DNA of 64,000 nt from the NCBI GenBank assembly GCA_028277625.1, contig JANQFW010000089.1:15815-79814 (forward strand), written 5' to 3'. Both the position numbers and the translations under genes were made by a program. The stretch is from Candidatus Gastranaerophilales bacterium. GTDB lineage: Bacteria; Cyanobacteriota; Vampirovibrionia; Gastranaerophilales; JANQFW01. Of the stretch, positions 3,225 through 64,000 are shown one piece after another. A model generated the notes under the pieces. It searched no databases and was not told the origin of the DNA. It saw only the letters and a list, made by a program, of their open reading frames with translations. Positions within the stretch are counted from its first letter, which is position 1, and every line of letters starts with the position of its first letter.

Positions 3225-3291
3225 ACGTTAAGTAATATTAAATACCTATAAAAACAAGCACTTTTTGTCTAAAAAAATACTTTATAATAGT

Positions 3292-3361
3292 GGGTAAAGG
3301 AAACACTGTTAAAGGTTGGTAAAAACCAAAGATTTAAAGGTGATTAACGTCACCTGTTTTT
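3292..3361 (+). ncRNA. candidate small RNA, family 1 copy A (about 70 nt)
   Basis: GCACTT (3258-3263)-N19-TATAAT (3283-3288), then the conserved 5' end GGGTAAAGG (3292-3300). Hairpin AGGTGA/TCACCT (3338-3355) plus T-run 3357-3361. Lies between convergent CDSs. Paralogous to 27410-27476 and 45029-45116. Confidence 0.5.
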
Positions 3362-3395
3362 ATTTTGTTCACTAATTTATAAAGCATTTATATAA

Positions 3396-5481: not shown

Positions 5482-5487
5482 TAAATT

Positions 5488-5570
5488 TTAAATTAATAAT
5501 TCTTTGCAGAAATCTATTTATAAAATAGTTATAAAGTAGTAAAATATTTAAAATAATAAAGGCAAATAAA
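5488..5570. repeat. 83-bp direct repeat, copy 1
   Basis: Identical to 7366-7448 except one base (A vs G in ...gcagaaAtct...), checked base by base. Confidence 0.9.
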
Positions 5571-6884: not shown

Positions 6885-7313
6885 CTACTTTTCTACATTT
6901 TTATGTACTTTTACAAATACAACGCTTCCTAAAAAATTTTTTCTAGCCATAAGGTCATCAGGCATATTCTTCATTCCTGGCTTAACGAAATAACCTACAG
7001 GTGCCAAGCAAAATCTTGTAAAAAATGGTGATCTTACTATCTTTGTATCTTCGGGTAAAATACGATATTTATTAATAGTTTCTATTTGCTCATCAGTTAG
7101 ATATCCGGTTAATCGCCTTAAAAGGCTAACTTTTAACTGTGGCTTTAGCTCAATAATATCGCCTTTGGTATCAAAATAAGCTTTACCTAATCTTGAAGGA
7201 TACAACTGATCTGGTTTATCCATATTGCTATTATTACTATGTAGAGGGTACTTACTACTAGCAAACCTACAAGCTATATTCATCATAGTATTCCTCTTTA
7301 ATGCATAATTCAA
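6885..7313 (-). CDS. hypothetical protein
   Basis: 142-aa ORF. No family recognised. Confidence 0.5.
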   Translation of the reverse strand: MNYALKRNTMMNIACRFASSKYPLHSNNSNMDKPDQLYPSRLGKAYFDTKGDIIELKPQLKVSLLRRLTGYLTDEQIETINKYRILPEDTKIVRSPFFTRFCLAPVGYFVKPGMKNMPDDLMARKNFLGSVVFVKVHKNVEK

Positions 7314-7365
7314 TACAACTATTATTATTAAATCAAAAAATATTTATATTTCATAATATTTAATG

Positions 7366-7448
7366 TTAAATTAATAATTCTTTGCAGAAGTCTATTTATA
7401 AAATAGTTATAAAGTAGTAAAATATTTAAAATAATAAAGGCAAATAAA
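7366..7448. repeat. 83-bp direct repeat, copy 2
   Basis: See 5488-5570. Its minus strand carries TACTTTATAAC, a -10-like motif 90-100 nt upstream of the CDS starting at 7313. Confidence 0.9.
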
Positions 7449-22482: not shown

Positions 22483-23595
22483 TTATTTAATCTGAACAGG
22501 CATAACCAAACATAAATAATCTTCATCACTGTCTGGTTTTATCAGAGCAGCAGCAAGAGGTTCACCCATTTCCAGCTTTATTTTTTCTGTATCTACAGCT
22601 TTTAAAGTATCAAGCATATATTTATAATTGAAAGCTATTAATATATCTTCACTATCGTATTCTATTTCCATTTGATCAGCAGAATCACCAAGGTCAGGTG
22701 TATCAGCAGAAAGATTTAAGATATTATTGTTAAAGTTTAACCTGATGATGTTAGTACGCTCATTGACCATTGTAGAGGTGCGCTCAAGAGCTAAGATAAA
22801 GTCTTCTCTGTTGATGAATGCACACTTTGCATAATCAGCAGGTATTAATTGTTGATATTTAGGGTATTGGCCGTCAAGAAGTCTGGAAGTTATAATTATA
22901 TCTTTAAAATTGAATAAAATCATTCCACTGTTTATTATAATATCAACATATTCAGCACTGCATGCAGCAACTAAACGGATAAACTCATTTAAGATTCGAG
23001 AAGGAATTATAACAGAATATTCTTGCTCAAGCTTGGTTTCTATGTTTTGAATGATTCTGGCAAGCCTATTTCCATCGGTGGCAGCCATTTCCAGGTATTC
23101 ATTTTTTATCAGGCAGAAGACCCCGCTTAAAACATTGTTTGAATCATAATCAGCTGTAGCAAAAGAAGTCTGCTTTATGGCTTTTAATAGAGGTTCAACA
23201 TTGAGGTTTATGGATTCTTCATACTCAGGATAAAGTAAGTCCGGAAATTCTGATGCAGGAATGCCAACTAAGTCAAACTTTGAGCGTGAACATTTTATCT
23301 GAGTATGATTAGTTTCAGAATCTAGTGTAAAGTTTACAGGTTTGTTTGGTAGTTTAGAAATAATTTCTGTAAGTTTTTTGGCAGGTAATGTAATACTTCC
23401 TGCATTCTCTACAGTTGCTTCTATTTTGGTTTCTATAGAGATGTCTAAGTCTGTTGCACAAAATTTTATTAAATTATTGTCTACAGTTTCTATTAAAATA
23501 TTAGCCAAAACTGGTTGAACACCTCTTATTGAGGTTGCTTTAGCTACATAGTTAATTCCAGCTTGTAATGTTTCTTTTTCAATAACAAATTTCAT
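22483..23595 (-). CDS. dnaN: DNA polymerase III beta sliding clamp
   Basis: 370 aa, DnaN-like over its full length (three-domain length, ...LANILIE.....L...ATDL...). Confidence 0.95.
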   Translation of the reverse strand: MKFVIEKETLQAGINYVAKATSIRGVQPVLANILIETVDNNLIKFCATDLDISIETKIEATVENAGSITLPAKKLTEIISKLPNKPVNFTLDSETNHTQIKCSRSKFDLVGIPASEFPDLLYPEYEESINLNVEPLLKAIKQTSFATADYDSNNVLSGVFCLIKNEYLEMAATDGNRLARIIQNIETKLEQEYSVIIPSRILNEFIRLVAACSAEYVDIIINSGMILFNFKDIIITSRLLDGQYPKYQQLIPADYAKCAFINREDFILALERTSTMVNERTNIIRLNFNNNILNLSADTPDLGDSADQMEIEYDSEDILIAFNYKYMLDTLKAVDTEKIKLEMGEPLAAALIKPDSDEDYLCLVMPVQIK

Positions 23596-23701: not shown

Positions 23702-23870
23702 ACTTGTAGAAAACTGATTGGAATTTAATAATATCTTATTTTTTACTTGTAGAAAAGTTGTTTAATACATGTTCAAAACTCGTATTCTTTTCTACAATCT
23801 AAAATTTGTCTACAAAGTCTTTCTACAAGCTTCTTATGTTTTTCTACAAGTTTTCTACAAGTTTTCTACA
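23702..23870. promoter_or_regulatory. DnaA-box cluster; core of candidate oriC (whole spacer 23596-24367)
   Basis: Eight 9-mers of the type TTTTCTACA. Reverse orientation: 23705-13 and 23748-56. Forward: 23788-96, 23806-14 (TTGTCTACA), 23819-27 (CTTTCTACA), 23840-48, 23851-59 and 23862-70. The last three are spaced exactly 11 bp apart. A 770-bp AT-rich non-coding spacer lies next to dnaN. Confidence 0.7.
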
Positions 23871-24367: not shown

Positions 24368-24667
24368 TTATTGTTTAAAATCACTAGCTTTTACTGAGTG
24401 AACCCAGCGAGCAAAGTTTTGTTGTTCATAACTTAAGGCAAATTGATACAATGATTCTATCAGGCTTGCGCCTGATTTTGATTTACCTAAAAGCATGTAT
24501 GCACCAAATTTATTTTTTATAAGGGCTATTTCTTTATGAATGACCTTTTCTATATTGTTTTCAGGCTTTTTAGATAAAATATCTTTTATCCATCTTATCA
24601 ATATGATCACAGGAGGAATATCTGCTTGATAACTCCTTATATGTTTAGAAAATGCACTTATTATCAT
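24368..24667 (-). CDS. hypothetical protein
   Basis: 99-aa ORF. No family recognised. Confidence 0.4.
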   Translation of the reverse strand: MIISAFSKHIRSYQADIPPVIILIRWIKDILSKKPENNIEKVIHKEIALIKNKFGAYMLLGKSKSGASLIESLYQFALSYEQQNFARWVHSVKASDFKQ

Positions 24668-24744: not shown

Positions 24745-26067
24745 TTAACTTATTATGCGATGTGTATATTTTTTTGCGTTTTCACCTGAAAAATCATCTG
24801 AAGTTTGACCATTGCCGTATAGTTTATATTTGTATATTACTAAGCCTTCTAAGCCAACAGGCCCTCTTGCATGTGTCTTGTTTGTGCTTATCCCTACTTC
24901 TGCACCTAGTCCATATCTAAATCCATCAGCAAATCGAGTTGAAGCGTTGTGATAAGTACCGGCTGAGTCTACTAGACTTAGAAATAGATCAGCGTTTTTT
25001 TTGTTTTCTGTAACTATACAGTCTGTATGGCCTGAACCGTAGTTATTAACATGGTCAATCGCTTCATTAATGTCATTAACTGTTTTTATTGATATTATTT
25101 TGTCTGTATACTCAGTTTTCCAGTCTTCTTCGGTGACTTTTTCTATGTCTTCAACTATGCTTAATATGTGTTCATCACCCTTCACTATTACATCAGCTTT
25201 TTTGAATTCATCTATAAGTTTTTTTATGTAATTTGCAGGTATATCTTTGTGAATCAGCAATGTTTCTACGGCATTACATGCCGAGGGGTATTGTATTTTT
25301 GAGTCTATAGTAATTTTTGTTGCTTTATCAAAGTCAGCGTCTTTGTCTATATAGACATGGCAAATACCATCTGCGTGGCCTAATACAGGAATTTTTGTAT
25401 TTGATTGAATATACTTAACCAGGTCATTACTCCCCCTTGGTATAATTAAGTCAATGTATTTGTCCAGTTCCAACATTTTTTGCACTTCATGACGCGTTTT
25501 TATTAAGGTTATTGAATTTTTAGGGAATTCTTCAATTTTGCCCAATGCTTTATTTATTATATTTATTAGTATTTCATTAGATTTGTCTGCTTCACTTCCG
25601 CCTTTTAGAATTACCGCATTTGATGATTTAACCGCTAGTGCTGCGATCTGTGGTACAACATCAGGTCTTGATTCAAAAATTACACCGATAACACCTAGTG
25701 GACAGCTCACTCTGTATAGTTCAAGATCTTTATCAAGTTCAATAGCCCATTCAACTTTGTTTACTGGATCTTCTAGGTTTGCTACATCTTTAATGCCTTG
25801 AACCATTACTTTAATTTTTTCATCATCAAGTTTTAGCCTGTTATACAGAGCTCTTGTCAGCTTGCCGTCTTCTATCATTTTTTCTGCATTAGCAAGATCT
25901 TTTTGGTTTTCTTTTAATATTAATTCTTTATTTTTTTCTATATTATCAGCGATTGCAAATAATGCTTTATTTTTGACCTCTTTGTTCAAAGATGCAAGCT
26001 TATAAGATGCTTGTTTTGAATTTTTTGCAATCTGACTTAAATCTTGTGTTTCACTTATCCCAGTCAT
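24745..26067 (-). CDS. proA: gamma-glutamyl phosphate reductase
   Basis: 440 aa, ProA/aldehyde-dehydrogenase-like over its full length. Sits directly downstream of proB. Confidence 0.95.
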   Translation of the reverse strand: MTGISETQDLSQIAKNSKQASYKLASLNKEVKNKALFAIADNIEKNKELILKENQKDLANAEKMIEDGKLTRALYNRLKLDDEKIKVMVQGIKDVANLEDPVNKVEWAIELDKDLELYRVSCPLGVIGVIFESRPDVVPQIAALAVKSSNAVILKGGSEADKSNEILINIINKALGKIEEFPKNSITLIKTRHEVQKMLELDKYIDLIIPRGSNDLVKYIQSNTKIPVLGHADGICHVYIDKDADFDKATKITIDSKIQYPSACNAVETLLIHKDIPANYIKKLIDEFKKADVIVKGDEHILSIVEDIEKVTEEDWKTEYTDKIISIKTVNDINEAIDHVNNYGSGHTDCIVTENKKNADLFLSLVDSAGTYHNASTRFADGFRYGLGAEVGISTNKTHARGPVGLEGLVIYKYKLYGNGQTSDDFSGENAKKYTHRIIS

Positions 26068-26094: not shown

Positions 26095-27243
26095 CTATAA
26101 AACGACTAAATTATCCCTTAAAATGATTTCATCATAGTTTTTGTATCCCAAAATATCTTCAATTTCATTAGAGTGCTTTCCAATGATTTTTCTGCATTCC
26201 CAACTTGAATAATTGACAATGCCTTTAGCTATTTCTTTATTATTATTGTCTATGATTGTTATGACATCACCTTTTTCAAAGTTATTTTTAATTTCTGTCA
26301 TACCTGCAGATAGTAGGCTTGCATTTTTTTCCAGGAGTGCTTTTTGGGCCCCTTTATTAATTTTTATGTAGCCTGTTATATTGGTAGCATAGGCAATCCA
26401 TCTTTTTTTGCCAGATAAATTGTTTGCAGGTAAAAATATTGTACCTTTGGCTTTGCCGTTAAAGATGTCTTTTATTATATTGTTAGTTTTACCGTTTGCA
26501 ATAATTGCAACCCCGCCTGAATTTGTTACGACTCTTGCAGCTTCAAGTTTTGTTTTCATACCCCCTCTGCCTTTTTTTGAAGCTTCAAATCCTAAAGCTT
26601 CAATTTCTGGAGTTATCTGAGGAACTGTTGATATTACTTTTGCACTGGAATTTTTTCTTGGGTCATCGTTATAAAGCCCATCAACATCTGATAATATAAC
26701 TAGCATATCCGCGTCAATTTTATTCATAACCAGTGCTGAAAGCTTATCATTATCTCCAAAACAGACTTTTATCCCATCTGCTTGGTAGCATTCAAGTTCG
26801 TTTGTTGAAATGGTATCATTTTCATTAATTATCGGTATTACACCCATTTCTAAGAGGGTACCAACTGTATTTCTTAAGCTTAAGTATTTATGTCTGTTTG
26901 ATAGGTCATCACCGGTTATTAATATTTGAGCGGTTTGTATTGAGAATTTTTCAAATCCTTCTTGGTATAAATACATTAATTGGCTTTGACCTACGGCTGC
27001 GCAGGCTTGCTTTAGGGTTATAAGTTCAGGTTTTTCCTTTATTCCTAACTTTTTTGCACCCATACCTACGGCACCGGAGGTTACTATTATTATTTCTTTG
27101 TTTTGCTTTTTTAGCTCGGCTATTTCTTCTATAAAGGAGTAGACCCTTGATAGTGCTATATTTCCATCTTGGCGGGTTAGTACATTTGTTCCGAACTTAA
27201 ATATAATACGATTGCTGTTTTCAATATAATTTTGATAATCCAT
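26095..27243 (-). CDS. proB: glutamate 5-kinase with C-terminal PUA domain
   Basis: 382 aa. Amino-acid-kinase fold motifs (VTSGAVGMG, GDNDKLSA, SDVDGLY) plus a PUA-like tail. Confidence 0.95.
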   Translation of the reverse strand: MDYQNYIENSNRIIFKFGTNVLTRQDGNIALSRVYSFIEEIAELKKQNKEIIIVTSGAVGMGAKKLGIKEKPELITLKQACAAVGQSQLMYLYQEGFEKFSIQTAQILITGDDLSNRHKYLSLRNTVGTLLEMGVIPIINENDTISTNELECYQADGIKVCFGDNDKLSALVMNKIDADMLVILSDVDGLYNDDPRKNSSAKVISTVPQITPEIEALGFEASKKGRGGMKTKLEAARVVTNSGGVAIIANGKTNNIIKDIFNGKAKGTIFLPANNLSGKKRWIAYATNITGYIKINKGAQKALLEKNASLLSAGMTEIKNNFEKGDVITIIDNNNKEIAKGIVNYSSWECRKIIGKHSNEIEDILGYKNYDEIILRDNLVVL

Positions 27244-27409
27244 GTTTTTTCTTTTTATTTTTAGTAATTACTGTTTAATTTTACTAAAACCACGTCATCT
27301 ATTCTATTGAGTTTTATTAATTTTTTGTTTTTTAAAAATAAAGTTTAATATCTTGTAATGTTTTTATAAAAACAAGCAATTTATTGAAAAAAATATACTT
27401 TATAATATT

Positions 27410-27476
27410 GGGTAAAGGATACACTATAAAAGGTAGGTTAAAATCAAGTTTTAGATGCGAAAGCATCTTTTTTTTT
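27410..27476 (+). ncRNA. candidate small RNA, family 1 copy B (about 67 nt)
   Basis: GCAATT (27376-81)-N19-TATAAT (27401-06), 5' end GGGTAAAGG (27410-18), hairpin AGATGC-GAAA-GCATCT (27453-68) plus T9. Opposite strand to both flanking genes. Confidence 0.5.
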
Positions 27477-27506: not shown

Positions 27507-27743
27507 TCACTTGGGTATAGGATCATTACCTCCAGGATGTAAAGGGTGACATTTAATGATTCTTTTGAAACCCAAAAAAGAACCTTTAATTGCGCCATGT
27601 TGAATAATGGCTTGCTTTGTATACTCTGAACATGTTGGATAAAATCGGCATGTTTGGGGAGTAAATTTAGAGAAAAACTGATAAAATTTTATTAATTTTA
27701 TGAAAATAGTCTTTAAAATGTTTTTATTATTGGGTTTTGACAT
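27507..27743 (-). CDS. yidD: membrane protein insertion efficiency factor
   Basis: 78 aa with [10 protein letters not shown]...HGAIKG..LG.KRI.KCHP.HPGG.DP, the YidD signature. Confidence 0.9.
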
Positions 27744-28110
27744 GTTCTGAGTATCTTTTTAAGGCTTTGTTAATACAATTTTCAACAGCATTATAAACCT
27801 GATTAAAATCAGTATCAAGTGAATCGTTTCTGGCTAAGAATATAATACTATACCAGTAATTATTGTATTCTGGATGTTTTATTTTGTACTTTTTAAAAGC
27901 TTCTCTTATATGTCTTTTAATTCTATTGCGCTTTGTGGCTTTTTTATGAATTTTTTTACCTACAACAAATCCTACTTTTGTTGGGTATTGTGGATTTTTA
28001 TTTTTTTGTCCCACATATAGTATTAGTAAAGAGTTTGATACTGATCTCTTTATATTATATGTTTTTACAAATTCTATATTCTTTGTTAGTCTTTCGTCTT
28101 TTGGTAGCAT
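27727..28110 (-). CDS. rnpA: ribonuclease P protein component
   Basis: 127-aa basic protein with [17 protein letters not shown] (RNR motif). Lies between rpmH and yidD and overlaps yidD by 17 nt. Confidence 0.85.
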
Positions 28111-28137
28111 TTTATTTATTCTTACTTATAATTTATT

Positions 28138-28174
28138 AAAAAAAGATTTAAGGTCAGAACCTTAAATCTTTTTT
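28138..28174. terminator. symmetric hairpin between rpmH and rnpA (attenuator/terminator)
   Basis: 12-bp stem AAGATTTAAGGT / ACCTTAAATCTT (28142-53 / 28158-69), loop CAGA, flanked by an A-run and a T-run, so it is followed by U-runs on both strands. Confidence 0.5.
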
Positions 28175-28183
28175 TGTCAATAT

Positions 28184-28342
28184 TTTAAATTAGGCTCTTT
28201 TTTTGTACTGAATGCCTAGCTTGTGGCGTCCTTTTGCTCTTCTTCTTGCAATAACATTTTTACCGCCTGGTGTTGACATTCTTACTAAGAAGCCACTTTT
28301 GCGTTGTCTTTTTCTTTTAGTTCCTTCTAGGGTACGTTTCAT
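28184..28342 (-). CDS. rpmH: 50S ribosomal protein L34 (not in the ORF track, under 60 aa)
   Basis: Hand translation: [52 protein letters not shown]. The MKRT...KR....GF..RM.T..G..V...RR.KGR..L signature is present, and GAGGAG lies upstream. Confidence 0.9.
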
Positions 28343-31533: not shown

Positions 31534-31702
31534 ACTGAGTAATAAAAACTTTTTATTATGTATTAAACTCATGCGAGAATTTAAGTAGTAAAAGATGTAG
31601 AACCTTTTATTCCTTACTTCCTTTGGTGTGTATTAATAAAAAAATAAAAAACATTTAAAAAGAATGGCAATTTTTCTTATGTATATAACTTTATATATAT
31701 AA

Positions 31703-31842
31703 GATAGGTAAAACGTTAAGATAGAGTATAAGTAGTATAACAAAAGACTTTCAACCAATATGTAAACCTATATATTAACCTACACACTTGCTAAAATCTT
31801 TAAACCATTCTTCTTGTTTTTATTTAACAAGAAGTTTTTTTT
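31703..31842 (+). ncRNA. candidate small RNA, family 2 copy A (about 140 nt)
   Basis: GCAATT (31667-72)-N19-TATATA (31692-97). 21-nt core ACCTACACACTTGCTAAAATC (31778-98) is identical to the minus strand of 54734-54. Terminator CTTCTTGTT/AACAAGAAG (31810-34) plus T8. Confidence 0.5.
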
Positions 31843-43140: not shown

Positions 43141-43578
43141 CTAAACAGGTATTTTAAAATATCTTTGTTTTAATGTGTAACTAATATCTTCTAGCCATAA
43201 AAACCCTATTAATTTCTTTTTCCAAGGAACTTCAACTACTGGTAGGCACTTGTTTTTAAAGCATTTCATTGTTTCATATGCTTCATCTAAACTCATTCCT
43301 GGATAAAGAACAATTGGATAGTCGTACTGATAAGCCAAATCTTTTATTTGTGTATTTCTGATAATGCTTAAGTTTTGCTTTAATCTATCTTTTAGGATTC
43401 TTTTTAGTTTTGTTTTATTTATGTAGCCTAAAAGATAAGATTCTTTGTTTGTAATAGGAATATCCTCGACGTTAAAAAGCTTCATTTTCTCAAAAATATC
43501 GTAAATAGTGTCATTTTCGCAAACAAATACAGAGTCTTCTCTTGTATACTCTTTTACAATCCTTTTAGTCAAACCCAT
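43141..43578 (-). CDS. CBS-pair domain protein
   Basis: 145 aa with two CBS-like repeats (...V.ENDTIYDIFEKMKLFNVEDIPI.... and ...MSLDEAYETMKCFKNKCLPVV...). Confidence 0.65.
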   Translation of the reverse strand: MGLTKRIVKEYTREDSVFVCENDTIYDIFEKMKLFNVEDIPITNKESYLLGYINKTKLKRILKDRLKQNLSIIRNTQIKDLAYQYDYPIVLYPGMSLDEAYETMKCFKNKCLPVVEVPWKKKLIGFLWLEDISYTLKQRYFKIPV

Positions 43579-43888
43579 ATTAAATCCTCTCTATAATGAA
43601 GAAATTTTTGGTAAAAAAAGGTTAAATCCTTTTAAATTAGATTACAGTAGTAAATTAAACTAATCTTTTTTGAAAAACTATAAATGAAAGAATAAGAAAA
43701 AAGTCTTTATAAAGTATAACTCTTTTTTTGCTGAACCCATATTAAATCCTCTCTAAATGTGAAGAAATTTTTAGTAAAAAAAATATTAAATACTTTTAGG
43801 TAGATTATATTAATAAATTTAACTAATTTTTTTTTGAAAAACTATAAGTAAATAGGGTAAAAATATTTATAAAAAAAATATAACTTAC
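43572..43888. repeat. tandem duplication (period 162 bp) of the CBS-gene 5' leader, including the start codon
   Basis: Unit 1 is 43572-43733, unit 2 is 43734-about 43888. Both begin AACCCATATTAAATCCTCTCT (minus strand: AGAGAGGATTTAATATGGGTT = RBS + ATG GGT). Similarity stays recognisable across the units. Confidence 0.8.
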
Positions 43889-44965: not shown

Positions 44966-45028
44966 TCAAGAATGTTAAACTAAAAATTATCTAAAGTAAA
45001 ACAAAATAAAACTGTTTTAGAACAAAAT

Positions 45029-45116
45029 AAAAAAGGTTCTTTCAGAACCCCATCGTTAGCACATTACCAAATTTTCATTAAATTTTTTTACTTTACCTTA
45101 CCTTTTTTTTTTACCC
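45029..45116 (-). ncRNA. candidate small RNA / leader, family 1 copy C (about 88 nt)
   Basis: Minus strand: GCATTT (45145-50)-N19-TATAAT (45120-25), 5' end GGGTAAAAAAAAAAGG, hairpin GGTTC-TGAAA-GAACC (45035-49) plus T6. Ends about 65 nt upstream of, and co-directional with, rnhC. Confidence 0.45.
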
Positions 45117-45193
45117 AATATTATAAAGTATTTATTTTATTAAAAAATGCGTATTTTTATAAAAATATTAATAAAAATAAATAAAAAATTTTT

Positions 45194-54797: not shown

Positions 54798-54981
54798 GTA
54801 TATATAAAGTTATTTACTTTAAAAAAATTGCTTAATTTAAAAAAAAATTTTGATTAGTGCTTTCTAATTTTTAATAAAAAAATGGTGATGTATTTAACAA
54901 CATCACCTGTTTGGTATTTTCCGCCTTTGTGTTTGCCTTATGGTCTCTTCTTCCAATATTTAATTAAATATTTTTAGATAA

Positions 54982-55335
54982 TTATATCATTATGCTAAGT
55001 CTTGTTCCTGTTGTTGAACCAAATGTCGATCTATTATCTACGATTTTAACAATTGTTTCTAAATTCTCTCTTAATCTTTTAGCATCTTTATTTAAGTGTT
55101 CGACTTTATTTTTTTTGCCACTATCAACCAAGCTTGTAAGCTTATTGATTGCTTTTTCTAATATCTTATTCTCGTTATTATCATCCCTGTGGGCAAATGG
55201 TTTTAATGGGTAACCAACCGGTGTGTATCCAAAACCTATATTCTTTTTAGGTTGGCTTAAAGGGGAATTATTATTTGTTTTGTTTATATTATAATTGAAT
55301 TTATTATTATCTATATTGTTTATATTATTCATCAT
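54982..55335 (-). CDS. hypothetical Asn-rich protein
   Basis: 117-aa ORF with a low-complexity N-terminus. No family recognised. Confidence 0.4.
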   Translation of the reverse strand: MMNNINNIDNNKFNYNINKTNNNSPLSQPKKNIGFGYTPVGYPLKPFAHRDDNNENKILEKAINKLTSLVDSGKKNKVEHLNKDAKRLRENLETIVKIVDNRSTFGSTTGTRLSIMI

Positions 55336-57297: not shown

Positions 57298-57413
57298 TAA
57301 ATAAAAAAGTAAAAAAGAAAGAAGATGTCTGTGATATATACTTATTATGTAAAGATATTGTAATAAATTATATTAAAAATGAAATCAAGGTTTTTTTTTT
57401 GTTTTTATATATG

Positions 57414-57466
57414 TGGGTGAAACAAAGGAAAATTAAGTAAAGTGTAATAAAGCTAAGTGTGTAGGT
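57414..57466. repeat. degenerate third copy of the family 2 element
   Basis: GGGTGAAACAA..GGAAAATTAAG...GCTAAGTGTGTAGGT aligns with 54710-54754 (GGGTGAAACAAGAAGGGAATTAAGGATTTTAGCAAGTGTGTAGGT). The minus-strand terminator half is lost. Confidence 0.45.
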
Positions 57467-57544
57467 AATAATAAAGAATTTTAATAATAATCTTCCTTAA
57501 ACTAAACTGACTCTTTTTTAAACTGGTAATGTACTAATAGTGCG

Positions 57545-57572
57545 GGTTCTTCGAAAAAGAACCTTTTTTTTT
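57545..57572 (+). terminator. rho-independent terminator
   Basis: GGTTCTT-CGAAA-AAGAACC followed by T9. Confidence 0.7.
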
Positions 57573-57597
57573 GCCAAAATTTCAATATTTAAATAAT

Positions 57598-60753: not shown

Positions 60754-61112
60754 GGTGCTAACTCCTCTATCACTTAATATAATCAATCAAAATAAGTATT
60801 AGTTCAGAAATAATACTTATTTTTTTTAAGATATTTATTTGTTTTTTTTATGTTATAACCTGCTACTAGCACACTCATATATTTATATGATTTTTATAAG
60901 ATACATATAATCTTTTGTCAAATCTAATTAATAAGATATTTACTTAAATTTATTATTTTTATTTTGCTCTATTTAATGAGAGTTTTATTATAAAGTTATT
61001 TTTTTGAATTATTTTTATAAAAGAAAGCTAGTTTAAGCTGAATTTTTTATTCATTTGTACTGAAACTTATGATATGATTTTTGTAGATTAAATAGCTGTA
61101 GAGGAAAGAAAT

Positions 61113-62316: not shown

Positions 62317-62400
62317 GGCAATTTAGAAATTGTTTTTGTTTTTATAATATTGTGAGATAAGTGAGAGCCAAAGTGGGTATAATTATTATTTAATTTGTGT
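62317..62400 (+). repeat. duplicated promoter/leader block, copy 1
   Basis: GGCAATTTAGAAATTGTTTTTGTTTTTATAATATTGTGAGATAAGTGAGAG...GGGTATAATT aligns with 63116-63200. Contains GCAATT (62318-23)-N19-TATAAT (62343-48). Confidence 0.6.
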
Positions 62401-62505
62401 TCAAAAAATGTAAAATTTAAATAATTATCCAACTGTAACATTTTTAAGCTTTTATTTATTTTTTGTAAAGATGAGGTAGTTTTAAAAGGTGTAGGAGGTA
62501 CACAA

Positions 62506-62916
62506 ATGGCAGTATCAGGTATGAATTCTGGACGTACTTACTCTGGAGAGGTTATGGATTTTTTAAAAGGAGGATTTAAGGATAAAAAAGCTTTGTTTGG
62601 TCAGGCGAAAGATTTTATAGCGTTAAAAGATACAGATAAAAATGGAACGATTTCAAAGGAGGAAGCCTTATTTAAAACTAAAGGCAAGATGCAACATGAT
62701 ATAGAAAAAATGTTTAAAAGAGTTGACCTGGATAAAGATGGTGAGCTTGATTATAAAGAGCTGGCATCCTTCAAGTTTTCGGCAGATGTAGATAGAAATA
62801 ATAATGTTACTAATAAAGAAGCGACAAATGCTTATGATGTTTCGATTGATGGTAAAGAAGGCTTTGTTAAAAATATATTAAGAAGTGCTTATACTCTTTT
62901 GGATTTAGGCTCTTAG
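62506..62916 (+). CDS. EF-hand calcium-binding protein
   Basis: Three canonical 12-residue loops: DTDKNGTISKEE, DLDKDGELDYKE, DVDRNNNVTNKE. GTAGGAGG RBS. Confidence 0.75.
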   Translation: MAVSGMNSGRTYSGEVMDFLKGGFKDKKALFGQAKDFIALKDTDKNGTISKEEALFKTKGKMQHDIEKMFKRVDLDKDGELDYKELASFKFSADVDRNNNVTNKEATNAYDVSIDGKEGFVKNILRSAYTLLDLGS

Positions 62917-63115: not shown

Positions 63116-63200
63116 GGCAATTTAGAAGTTTATTTTGTTTTTATAATATTGTAAGGTAGTGAGGATTAAATATGGTATAATTGGTATTCAGCTTGTGTAT
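63116..63200 (+). repeat. duplicated promoter/leader block, copy 2
   Basis: GGCAATTTAGAAGTTTATTTTGTTTTTATAATATTGTAAGGTAGTGAGG...TGGTATAATT. Contains GCAATT (63117-22)-N19-TATAAT (63142-47). A weak AAGCTT/AAGCTT hairpin plus T8 follows at 63231-63259. Confidence 0.6.
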
Positions 63201-63319
63201 TAAAGAAAATAAATAATAAGTAAAGTTAGTAAGCTTGAAATATTTTTAAGCTTTTTTTTATTAATTTTGCATATATTTGACTTTTAAAAAGTGAATCTTA
63301 ATAGATAGGAGTTTTTAGT

Positions 63320-64000
63320 ATGTTAACTGGTATTTCTTTGGATAAAGGTAGGATACAAAAAGCATTCAAGGTCGTTGAAAATAATTTTGATTATTTTGAC
63401 ACAGTAGGAGGAGGAGAAGAGGATAGTGTATTTAATCTTTCTAGTATAGCAGTTGCAGCAATAGATGAAAATGCAGATAAAAGTATTAAAGAAGCTGCAA
63501 TGATTCTCTTAAGTAATCAGTACTTTTTAAACTCTTTCCTGAATGAAAAAAAAGAAAAATATCCTATAAAAGAAGATGTAGAGGGGATGTTAGACTTATA
63601 TTTGACTGATTGGTATTTTAATATTTCAGATGAAGAGGACGGTAAGCGAGACGGTAAAATTCATAAGTCTGTTATGCCCAAGAATCCATTTAATAGTGCT
63701 ACTTCTAACGATGATGTCTACAAGGGGGGGGGCTTTTCTCAAGAAATGCTTGATGATATAAGCAAGGATGATGATTATATAACAAAAGATGAATTGTTAA
63801 TGTTTGAAAAATCATTGAGAGGGTTTAGTAAACATGACATCGAAAATTTTGATAAGTCGTTCTCTAAACATATTAGTGATGGAAAAGTGGAAAGTTTAAT
63901 AGGATATAACCATTTTGCAACGGCACTAGTTGCTCTTAATGATAAGTCTATAGGTAAAAAAATTATTAAGGAATCTATAAAAAGAGGTGAAGGAGGATTT
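63320..64000 (+). CDS. hypothetical acidic protein with degenerate EF-hand-like loops (partial, runs off the right edge)
   Basis: ATG at 63320 after a GGAG RBS. I read 227 codons to the window end with no stop. Absent from the ORF track because no stop is reached. Contains a G9 run at 63724-63732. Confidence 0.5.
   Translation, partial: MLTGISLDKGRIQKAFKVVENNFDYFDTVGGGEEDSVFNLSSIAVAAIDENADKSIKEAAMILLSNQYFLNSFLNEKKEKYPIKEDVEGMLDLYLTDWYFNISDEEDGKRDGKIHKSVMPKNPFNSATSNDDVYKGGGFSQEMLDDISKDDDYITKDELLMFEKSLRGFSKHDIENFDKSFSKHISDGKVESLIGYNHFATALVALNDKSIGKKIIKESIKRGEGGF

Follow-up and report, generated by a model that had tools for sequence, protein, structure and literature searches.

A unit of 113 bases on the plus strand (27364-27476), here called copy B, lies between the minus-strand genes proB and yidD in a 64-kb window (the whole stretch of DNA that was analysed) of a metagenome-assembled genome (MAG) of Gastranaerophilales (Melainabacteria). 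Copy B is a genuine feature that is not due to chance, and it has the look of a stand-alone gene for a non-coding RNA of ~65 nt. Judged by sequence comparison, it is probably an independently transcribed, non-coding small RNA (sRNA) gene whose product would act in trans. It is one of a group of similar units, Family 1, of which the window holds at least four (A, B, C and the diverged E), and the best reading of the group is that of sibling small RNAs, a previously undescribed and clade-restricted family of an ordinary kind of feature.

Melainabacteria are uncultured, non-photosynthetic gut and groundwater relatives of cyanobacteria, known solely through metagenomes. The closest proB proteins to that of the window came from 'Candidatus Gastranaerophilales' and Melainabacteria MAGs, while exact matches for the window's own proB and yidD proteins were not on record. 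Family 1 was compared between the source window and two readable close relatives, namely PL25a_bin.58 (GCA_028280605.1, proB 94% identical to the source proB) and PL23b_bin.96 (GCA_028282645.1, 91% identical), hereafter PL25a and PL23b.

Copy B and its boundaries

Copy B shares 83% identity over 83 nt with copy A (3247-3329), and since this match has a BLAST E-value of 2.9e-20 within the 64-kb window, the likeness lies far beyond chance. Copy C (45110-45170, -) matches over 61 nt with an E-value of 9e-14, mainly in the promoter part, so that copy B is indeed the best partner of copy A, as an earlier note on this DNA had proposed. The sequence blocks described in that note, i.e., TATAAAAACAAGCA (27365-27378), TACTTTATAAT (27396-27406), and GGGTAAAGGATACACT (27410-27425), are all present on the plus strand of the unit.

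A conserved upstream promoter region (27340..27400, +) contains TATAAAAACAAGCA as well as a GCAATTT box at the -35 position (27376-27382, +), which is located 18 nt upstream of a perfect TATAAT -10 hexamer (27401..27406, +) inside the extended -10 region TACTTTATAAT. Spacing from this hexamer would place the transcription start at 27410-27413, and the predicted transcript (27410..27476, +) would be ~64-67 nt long and read GGGUAAAGGAUACACUAUAAAAGGUAGGUUAAAAUCAAGUUUUAGAUGCGAAAGCAUCU(U)8. It would carry two purine motifs that resemble Shine-Dalgarno (SD) sequences, UAAAGGA (27413-27419, +) and AAAGGUAGGU (27429-27438, +).

At its 3' end, the terminator hairpin AGATGC-GAAA-GCATCT (27453-27468, +; 6-bp stem, loop GAAA) was confirmed, while the run of nine T claimed with it became a run of eight after the 6-bp stem (27469-27476, +), nine being reached only by including the last stem base. 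The terminator is of a one-way type: a terminator scan found A, B, C, and E in the sense orientation only, the minus strand past the copy B hairpin reads AAAACTTGATTTT with no T run, and there is no same-strand open reading frame (ORF) within 17 kb upstream. Copy B thus shows two features expected of a trans-encoded sRNA gene, namely a Rho-independent terminator in its own orientation that does not serve an upstream ORF, and no conserved ORF. Its strand is opposite to that of all its neighbours, which were identified by Pfam as proA (24745-26067, -), proB (glutamate 5-kinase, 26095-27243, -), yidD (27507-27743, -), rnpA (27727-28110, -), and rpmH (28190-28342, -). As far as sequence can tell, the proposal that the unit is autonomous on the plus strand is backed by a putative promoter with a perfect TATAAT, the one-way terminator, the lack of a conserved ORF and conservation in a relative. 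Copy B and yidD are convergent; the predicted transcript ends at 27476, ~30 nt before the yidD stop codon at 27507, and antisense overlap would not arise except by read-through.

No ORF of at least 20 aa is conserved across the Family 1 members on either strand. A tiny protein gene, in the form of a leaderless sense ORF starting (T/G)TG-GGT-AAA or of a 44-aa antisense ORF (27332-27466), could be imagined, as a T or a G precedes TGGG in every case (yielding TTG or GTG), all orthologues of A read a 10-aa frame MGKGNT(V/F)KG(W/R)*, and the antisense ORF is retained in copy B and its PL25a counterpart. Such a gene is nevertheless hardly credible: the putative start is found 1 nt past the -10 hexamer, a distance that would leave it outside the transcript, the sense frame varies from 6 to 31 aa and in copy B runs through the terminator, several members have no ORF of at least 20 aa on either strand, and the 44-aa antisense ORF is absent from most members and has no Shine-Dalgarno sequence before its ATG. 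The pyrimidine-rich composition of the antisense strand would also by itself lead one to expect open frames there.

Family 1 across loci and genomes

Member A (3247..3366, +) consists of a promoter, an RNA, and the terminator GGTGAT-TAAC-GTCACC followed by a T run. Member C (45024..45161, -) has the same promoter and the GGGUAAA start shared by Family 1 RNAs, a body beginning AAAAAAAAAAGGUAAGGUAAAG, an extra 3' domain UGGUAAUGUGCUAACGAUG and the terminator GGGGUUCU-GAAA-GAACC; its orthologue in PL25a lies at L001 330-483. The diverged member E (~57375-57573, +; ~160 nt) was found through a scan for terminators without a preceding same-strand ORF, which also recovered A, B, and C. Its -10 hexamer is TATATA and it starts with GGGUGAAACAAAGGAAAA (TATATA-TG-TGGGTGAAACAAAGGAAAA), its PL25a orthologue starts with GGGTAAAACAAAGGTAAGG, and nhmmer placed both in Family 1 with E-values of 7e-6 to 3e-5 (2.8e-5 for the member in the window). 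E and C share the 3' domain UGGUAAUGU(G/A)CUAA and a GGGUUCU/AGAACC terminator. A further type, D, occurs as the tandem D1/D2 upstream of a glycosyltransferase gene in PL25a (L009 1415-1752, -; 180 nt apart), whereas a single copy is found at the syntenic site in PL23b (L007 4064-4212), which points to a recent duplication within the family.

Terminator stems come in three sequences, GGTGAY/GTCACC (A), RGATGC/GCATCT (B), and GGGTTCT/AGAACC (C, D, and E), with the GGTGC/GCACC stem of an A/B-like paralogue in PL23b grouped with the B type. When the A and B types are aligned, the stem shows 97% pairing, with both sides changed in 4/6 pairs, compared to 28-56% pairing in slid controls, and this alignment shows that terminator pairing has been kept through compensatory changes. 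At locus A the entire unit, from ~-75 to the T run, is conserved in the three MAGs while the adjacent intergenic DNA is not alignable, a pattern that supports purifying selection on the whole unit. An MCP gene lies upstream of A in the window only, and the orthologues of A keep the unit though the upstream gene differs.

Overall, the members neighbour trpS/MCP, proB/yidD, a methyltransferase gene together with RNase HIII, an OEP gene, a glycosyltransferase gene, and fmt with a cation-efflux gene; these genes are unrelated to each other, and the members are convergent, antisense, or co-directional to them. Synteny across genomes holds for A, C, D, and E. This synteny bears on the idea of a mobile or recombining repeat devoid of RNA function, similar to a miniature inverted-repeat transposable element (MITE) or a repetitive extragenic palindrome (REP), in which the promoter and terminator parts would be incidental. 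Family 1 is multi-copy, its locations differ between genomes, and the presence or absence of a copy at the yidD-proB site has both junctions in T runs, all of which would suit such a repeat. Yet beyond the synteny, terminal inverted repeats are lacking (the only repeat at the borders is the T run that belongs to the terminator), no two copies in the same genome are more than 83% alike, one tandem pair excepted, there are only about 4-6 copies per genome, nothing matches among viral contigs or phage records, and the terminator stems carry compensatory changes. With neither the terminal inverted repeats and target-site duplications nor the many near-identical copies that define MITEs and REPs, an origin of this kind is very improbable.

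Another possibility concerns action in cis, with Family 1 as a module of a promoter and a regulated terminator (attenuator) whose read-through would govern the DNA that follows; for copy B, the outcome would be an antisense RNA over yidD-rnpA-rpmH or interference with the proBA promoter, as the earlier note had suggested. The positions of some members are compatible with it, since the C and D types are followed immediately by genes on their own strand (RNase HIII and the glycosyltransferase) and since A, B, and E face convergent genes, so that read-through would be antisense. The terminators are, however, of a strong, canonical form with 8-9 U, folding predicts no alternative (antiterminator) structure, the downstream partners are unrelated, and the A unit persists beside differing upstream genes. 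In PL25a the copy B element occupies the equivalent place (L001 9784-9911, -), its T run overlapping the last codons of a YidD that is 12 residues longer, so that the last Lys codons and the stop of that gene are the complement of the sRNA terminator T run. In PL23b the yidD-proB spacer measures 71 nt and lacks the element, with junctions in T runs, while an intermediate A/B-like paralogue is present elsewhere, between fmt and a cation-efflux gene. The ~100 nt upstream of proB (27244 to ~27345) are conserved in all three genomes, with the copy B element outside. As PL23b does without copy B and keeps the proB upstream region otherwise intact, copy B is unlikely to control proBA in a locus-specific way, comparison does not support the proposed link to expression of proBA or the rpmH operon, and cis action in general seems improbable. 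The absence of copy B from PL23b and the placement of other members beside unrelated genes argue instead for a trans-acting product, although antisense effects through read-through may occur.

Several other features were noticed around copy B. The window YidD (27507-27758, -) ends 12 residues early at a premature TGA when compared with L001 9523-9795 and L002 9657-9929, and a remnant of the yidD tail is found between its stop codon and the copy B terminator. Between rpmH and rnpA, a perfect 18-bp hairpin (28137-28176; AAAAAAAGATTTAAGGT-CAGA-ACCTTAAATCTTTTTTT) has an A run on one side and a T run on the other and looks like a two-way terminator or an attenuator in the rpmH-rnpA-yidD string. Six TTTTCTACA boxes, similar to DnaA boxes, are clustered in ~170 bp (23705-23870) of 22-26% GC between dnaN (22483-23595, -) and the ORF at 24368-24667; the cumulative GC skew has its minimum at ~26.6-27.2 kb and gene-strand bias switches near 28 kb. 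The origin of replication probably lies here, ~3.5 kb from copy B.

The promoter architecture of Family 1 is GCAATTT-N16-TTTATAAT. In an alignment of 11 members from the three genomes, an invariant GCAnTTT (11/11 members) is followed by 16 nt, (C/T)TTTATAAT, two variable bases, and TGGGTAAA, and the region further upstream is conserved as well (TTAATAT...TAATGTT...TATAAAAAC). Within the window, the exact TACTTTATAAT occurs three times, always in Family 1, while the full architecture with 0-1 mismatch is found at A, B, C, 62318, and 63117. The last two, without mismatch, precede an EF-hand protein gene and the following ORF. A two-mismatch variant ending in CTTTATATA is found at 31667 (+) and 54831 (-), and a ACTTTATAAT-like box is located near 60990 (-), ~200 nt upstream of the gene for a 910-aa protein, as well as before the units of a second family, FamX. 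As protein genes are also preceded by the pattern, correctly oriented, it looks like a genuine promoter type of the source organism and not a peculiarity of a repeat. The regions at 62318-62505 and 63117-63320 (+) are paralogous 5' regions of ~150-190 nt with purine-rich transcribed starts (GTGAGATAAGTGAGAG and GTAAGGTAGTGAGGA), the first preceding the EF-hand protein gene (62506-62916) and the second the next ORF; given the common promoter class, one regulator may control both the small RNAs and these mRNAs.

Family 1 appears confined, within the reach of these searches, to one narrow Gastranaerophilales clade. A scan of a genome collection with TACTTTATAATNNTGGGTAAA returned true members in two Gastranaerophilales MAGs only (5 sites in PL25a and 3 in PL23b), and these two related MAGs hold 3-6 members each. 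Five other TACTTTATAATNNTGGGTAAA matches in that collection lay within unrelated sequence and were dismissed as chance, and a metagenome scan with the slightly looser TAYTTTATAATNNTGGGTAAA gave 44 matches, none of which was a member by nhmmer or by eye. With nhmmer profiles run over all DNA examined, no members beyond A, B, C, and E were found, and none was found in L003, a relative with a proB of 71% identity; no match came from viral contigs or phage records either. Rfam 15 at gathering thresholds gave no match in the whole window, and with E-values up to 10 around B, D1/D2, X1, X2, and P3, only chance-level matches to snoRNA, miRNA, and histone stem-loop models were returned.

A number of points weigh against an sRNA gene of this kind. 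The case for a copy B RNA is one of sequence comparison, drawn from three closely related MAGs, a sample that leaves little power for covariation. Copy B is dispensable in at least one relative (PL23b), and background intergenic conservation is fairly high at loci B and C. Conservation peaks in the promoter, which is itself the search pattern, and copy B or the family may act at the DNA level. A generic sigma-70 scan calls no plus-strand promoter at copy B, as there is no TTGACA-like -35 element. GGA, the core of CsrA sites, is absent from C, and the strength of SD-like sites is near background in C and E and weak in D and in the E orthologue of PL25a. Neither csrA nor fliW was found next to flgL or in any DNA examined.

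RNA bodies and possible modes of action

Each Family 1 unit has a C-poor, purine-rich body of 40-130 nt, with 40-70 nt among the 11 aligned members, followed by a GC-rich hairpin and a T run. Purines make up 67% of the first 45 nt in copy B (67-82% across the family), and C makes up 7% of its 43-nt body (3-11% across the family). No fold is predicted beyond the terminator, with z-scores of -1.3 (B), -1.1 (A), and -1.3 (C). The words AAAGG, AAGGT, AGGTA, and GGTAA are enriched 15-23 times in the bodies, and an AAAGG(T/A)A motif is reiterated 2-6 times per RNA with number and spacing varying between paralogues. GGA occurs 0-2 times per RNA. GGAAAC(A) is present once in A and in the PL25a copy B and twice in D1, D2 has one GGAAAC and one GGAAAA, copy B carries GGAUAC, and C has no such motif. 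Against an anti-SD sequence that was assumed (ACCUCCUUU) rather than read from the source genome, the two SD-like sites of copy B reach -5.5 and -6.6 kcal/mol, compared to a median of -5.5 for the genes of the window, and the A and B types each have two sites at this real-gene strength (-5.5 to -6.6 kcal/mol).

These properties suggest how a Family 1 RNA might work. An RNA made from the TATAAT box of copy B, starting near 27410, would act in trans and not on proBA or yidD, with its function residing in single-stranded purine motifs. Such motifs could serve as decoys that titrate a factor recognising sites of this kind, be it an RNA-binding protein, a pyrimidine-rich small RNA, or the anti-SD of the 30S subunit. 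We regard this decoy mode as tentative; what makes it the likeliest mode considered is that each RNA repeats the motif, that paralogues differ in how many copies they have and how these are spaced, and that the motif looks like a ribosome-binding site and not like its complement. For this reason it is weakly favoured over base pairing through a single seed, and the classical occlusion of mRNA ribosome-binding sites by one seed is less likely. In tblastn searches for CsrA, Hfq, and FliW, combined with a Pfam scan of the ORFs that follow flgL, Hfq was not found in the DNA examined, and neither CsrA nor FliW was identified by Pfam after flgN-flgK-flgL in the window. As GGA is not universal in the family and csrA and fliW were not found, a CsrA-type partner is not supported.

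FamX is a candidate second sRNA-like family and a candidate RNA partner of Family 1. Its two copies in the window (31667-31842, + and 54831-54690, -) have a promoter of the class GCAATTT-N16-CTTTATATA, an invariant pyrimidine-rich stretch (ACCTACACACTTGCTAAAATC(T/C)TTAA in DNA, ACCUACACACUUGCUAAAAUC(U/C)UUAA in RNA), and the terminator CTTCTTGTT-loop-AACAAGAAG followed by T8. Orthologues are located at L001 5616-5420 and L002 5638-5465, copy X1 is conserved downstream of an alpha-amylase gene in all three MAGs, and FamX has no match in Rfam. The shared promoter suggests that Family 1 members and FamX (31667, + and 54831, -) would be co-regulated.

A base-pairing sRNA would use the 5' segment GGGUAAAGGAAACAC...AAAGGUAGGU as a seed for pyrimidine-rich mRNA stretches or for ACCUACACACUUGCUAAAAUCUUUAA of FamX, the latter resembling the cyanobacterial Yfr2-Yfr1 interplay. 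In its favour, the 5' 35 nt are near-identical among the A and B types of the three genomes, GUAGGUUAA of copy B is exactly complementary to UUAACCUAC in FamX X1 (9 nt, perfect), FamX has the same promoter class, and a published precedent exists in cyanobacteria, where the motifs of two conserved sRNAs are almost complementary (PMC6778093). The energies of Family 1-FamX duplexes are, however, no better than those of shuffles (most z-scores between -1.7 and +0.9, one pair at -3.1), the complementarity shrinks to 6 nt in PL23b without covariation, and the GUAGGU core is missing from the C and D types. Among the 57 genes of the window (~2-3% of a genome), no complementary pyrimidine sites were found near start codons, and reverse-complement targets showed no excess in the window. 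Base pairing is thus an unlikely, though not negligible, alternative to the decoy mode.

Further units were noted alongside these families. A third orphan unit (~54990-54870, -) has a GATATAAT box, the purine-rich body GGAAGAAGAGACCATAAGGCAAACACAAAGGCGGAAAATACCAAACA and the terminator GGTGATG-loop-CATCACC with T7; its similarity to Family 1 by nhmmer is weak (E 0.08). Two tandem units of ~115 nt (43563-43677 and 43725-43840, +), 72-77% alike and containing AAATCCTCTCTATAAT and GGTAAAAAAAGGTTAAATCC, occupy the spacer before the RNase HIII gene.

Comparison with known sRNA families

The closest analogue of Family 1 is found in Yfr2-Yfr5, stand-alone sibling sRNAs of cyanobacteria that are 89-95 nt long and vary in copy number and position between genomes (Axmann et al. 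2005, PMC1242208; Lambrecht et al. 2018-2019, PMC6191309 and PMC6778093). In Yfr2, a GGAAACA repeat is shown in the loop of a conserved 5' hairpin (PMC1242208), the 5' motif is nearly complementary to the Yfr1/Yfr10 motif ACUCCUCACAC (PMC6778093), a CGRE1 palindrome ~55 nt upstream of the start is bound by the GntR regulator PMM1637 (PMC6191309), and the RNA acts in part through binding other sRNAs. Like them, Family 1 consists of short stand-alone genes (~65-160 nt) whose copy numbers and genomic sites differ between related genomes, with a conserved promoter element that implies a dedicated regulator and purine-rich conserved motifs, including GGAAAC(A) in some members. The host lineage of Family 1 is the sister group of the cyanobacteria, the hosts of Yfr2-5, and the binding of other sRNAs by Yfr2 fits the decoy reading. 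Membership in Yfr2-5 is nonetheless not supported. Family 1 has no detectable homology in sequence or structure and no Rfam match at E-values up to 10, no 5' hairpin presenting the motif is predicted, and the GGAAAC motif is GGAUAC in copy B and missing from copy C. A GUGUGAGGAGU-like stretch, which would be the complement of the Yfr1 motif ACUCCUCACAC, is absent from every Family 1 member. The Family 1 promoter element appears to differ from CGRE1. FamX, which has ACCUACACAC, is the only candidate for a Yfr1-like partner, and its pairing with Family 1 is not above chance.

Two other types of sRNA invite comparison. CsrB/CsrC and RsmX/Y/Z titrate proteins by GGA motifs, and CrcZ by A-rich motifs. 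As in these, Family 1 RNAs carry several short purine motifs that resemble ribosome-binding sites and vary in number and spacing between paralogues, encoded by sibling genes under a common promoter. Unlike in CsrB/Rsm, the motif is AAAGG(U/A)A with the GGA core missing in some members, it lies outside hairpin loops in bodies predicted to be unstructured, and the RNAs are much shorter and carry fewer motifs, so that the multiple A(N)GGA sites, mostly in hairpin loops, that mark CsrB/Rsm RNAs are not found. The DNA examined for Family 1 hosts also yielded no csrA or fliW.

Sibling sRNAs of the generic kind, such as Qrr1-5, OmrA/B, PrrF1/2, and the streptococcal csRNAs, rely on a single conserved seed that is typically pyrimidine-rich and complementary to ribosome-binding sites (PMC4211561). 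Family 1 shares with them several paralogues per genome, a shared regulated promoter, a conserved 5' or central region with variable 3' parts, Rho-independent terminators and, in D1/D2 of PL25a, a tandem pair. Its conserved parts are instead purine-rich and themselves resemble ribosome-binding sites, and no target was found in the window. On these comparisons, Family 1 may be closer in its working to a motif-array sponge or a generic sibling sRNA, although it has the defining features of neither. A last parallel is the STAB-SD of the Bacillus cryIIIA mRNA, a Shine-Dalgarno-like 5' stabiliser. Copy B likewise has an SD-like sequence a few nucleotides from its 5' end with no start codon after it, but STAB-SD is part of a long mRNA, while the element in copy B is followed by a terminator only.

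Elsewhere in the window, an 87-nt repeat (5484-5570 and 7362-7448; 98% identical, copies 1.9 kb apart) has a TACTTTATAAC box on its minus strand and is probably a duplicated promoter region, the second copy lying upstream of the ORF at 6885-7313 (-).

For annotation, the present reading means that the yidD-proB spacer would contain an extra gene and not a proBA control sequence. A bolder reading, which we consider distinctly doubtful, is that Family 1, possibly together with FamX and the 54870-54990 unit, forms a promoter-defined small-RNA regulon whose AAAGG(U/A)A decoys titrate a regulator recognising SD sequences (a protein, the 30S anti-SD, or a pyrimidine-rich sRNA). If true, it would constitute a global switch similar to CsrB or Yfr2 but independently evolved, in a lineage without a described regulatory RNA; literature searches on Melainabacteria (Vampirovibrionia) turned up none. 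As the family comes from three MAGs only and the kind of element is common, its value is modest until expression is shown. Family 1 nonetheless offers a probe for metatranscriptomes and a promoter motif with which its regulator could be sought, as well as a way to ask if networks of sibling sRNAs such as Yfr1/Yfr2 are older than the divergence of photosynthetic from non-photosynthetic cyanobacteria, and its significance would rise if the RNAs were abundant and defined a decoy-type circuit in Melainabacteria.

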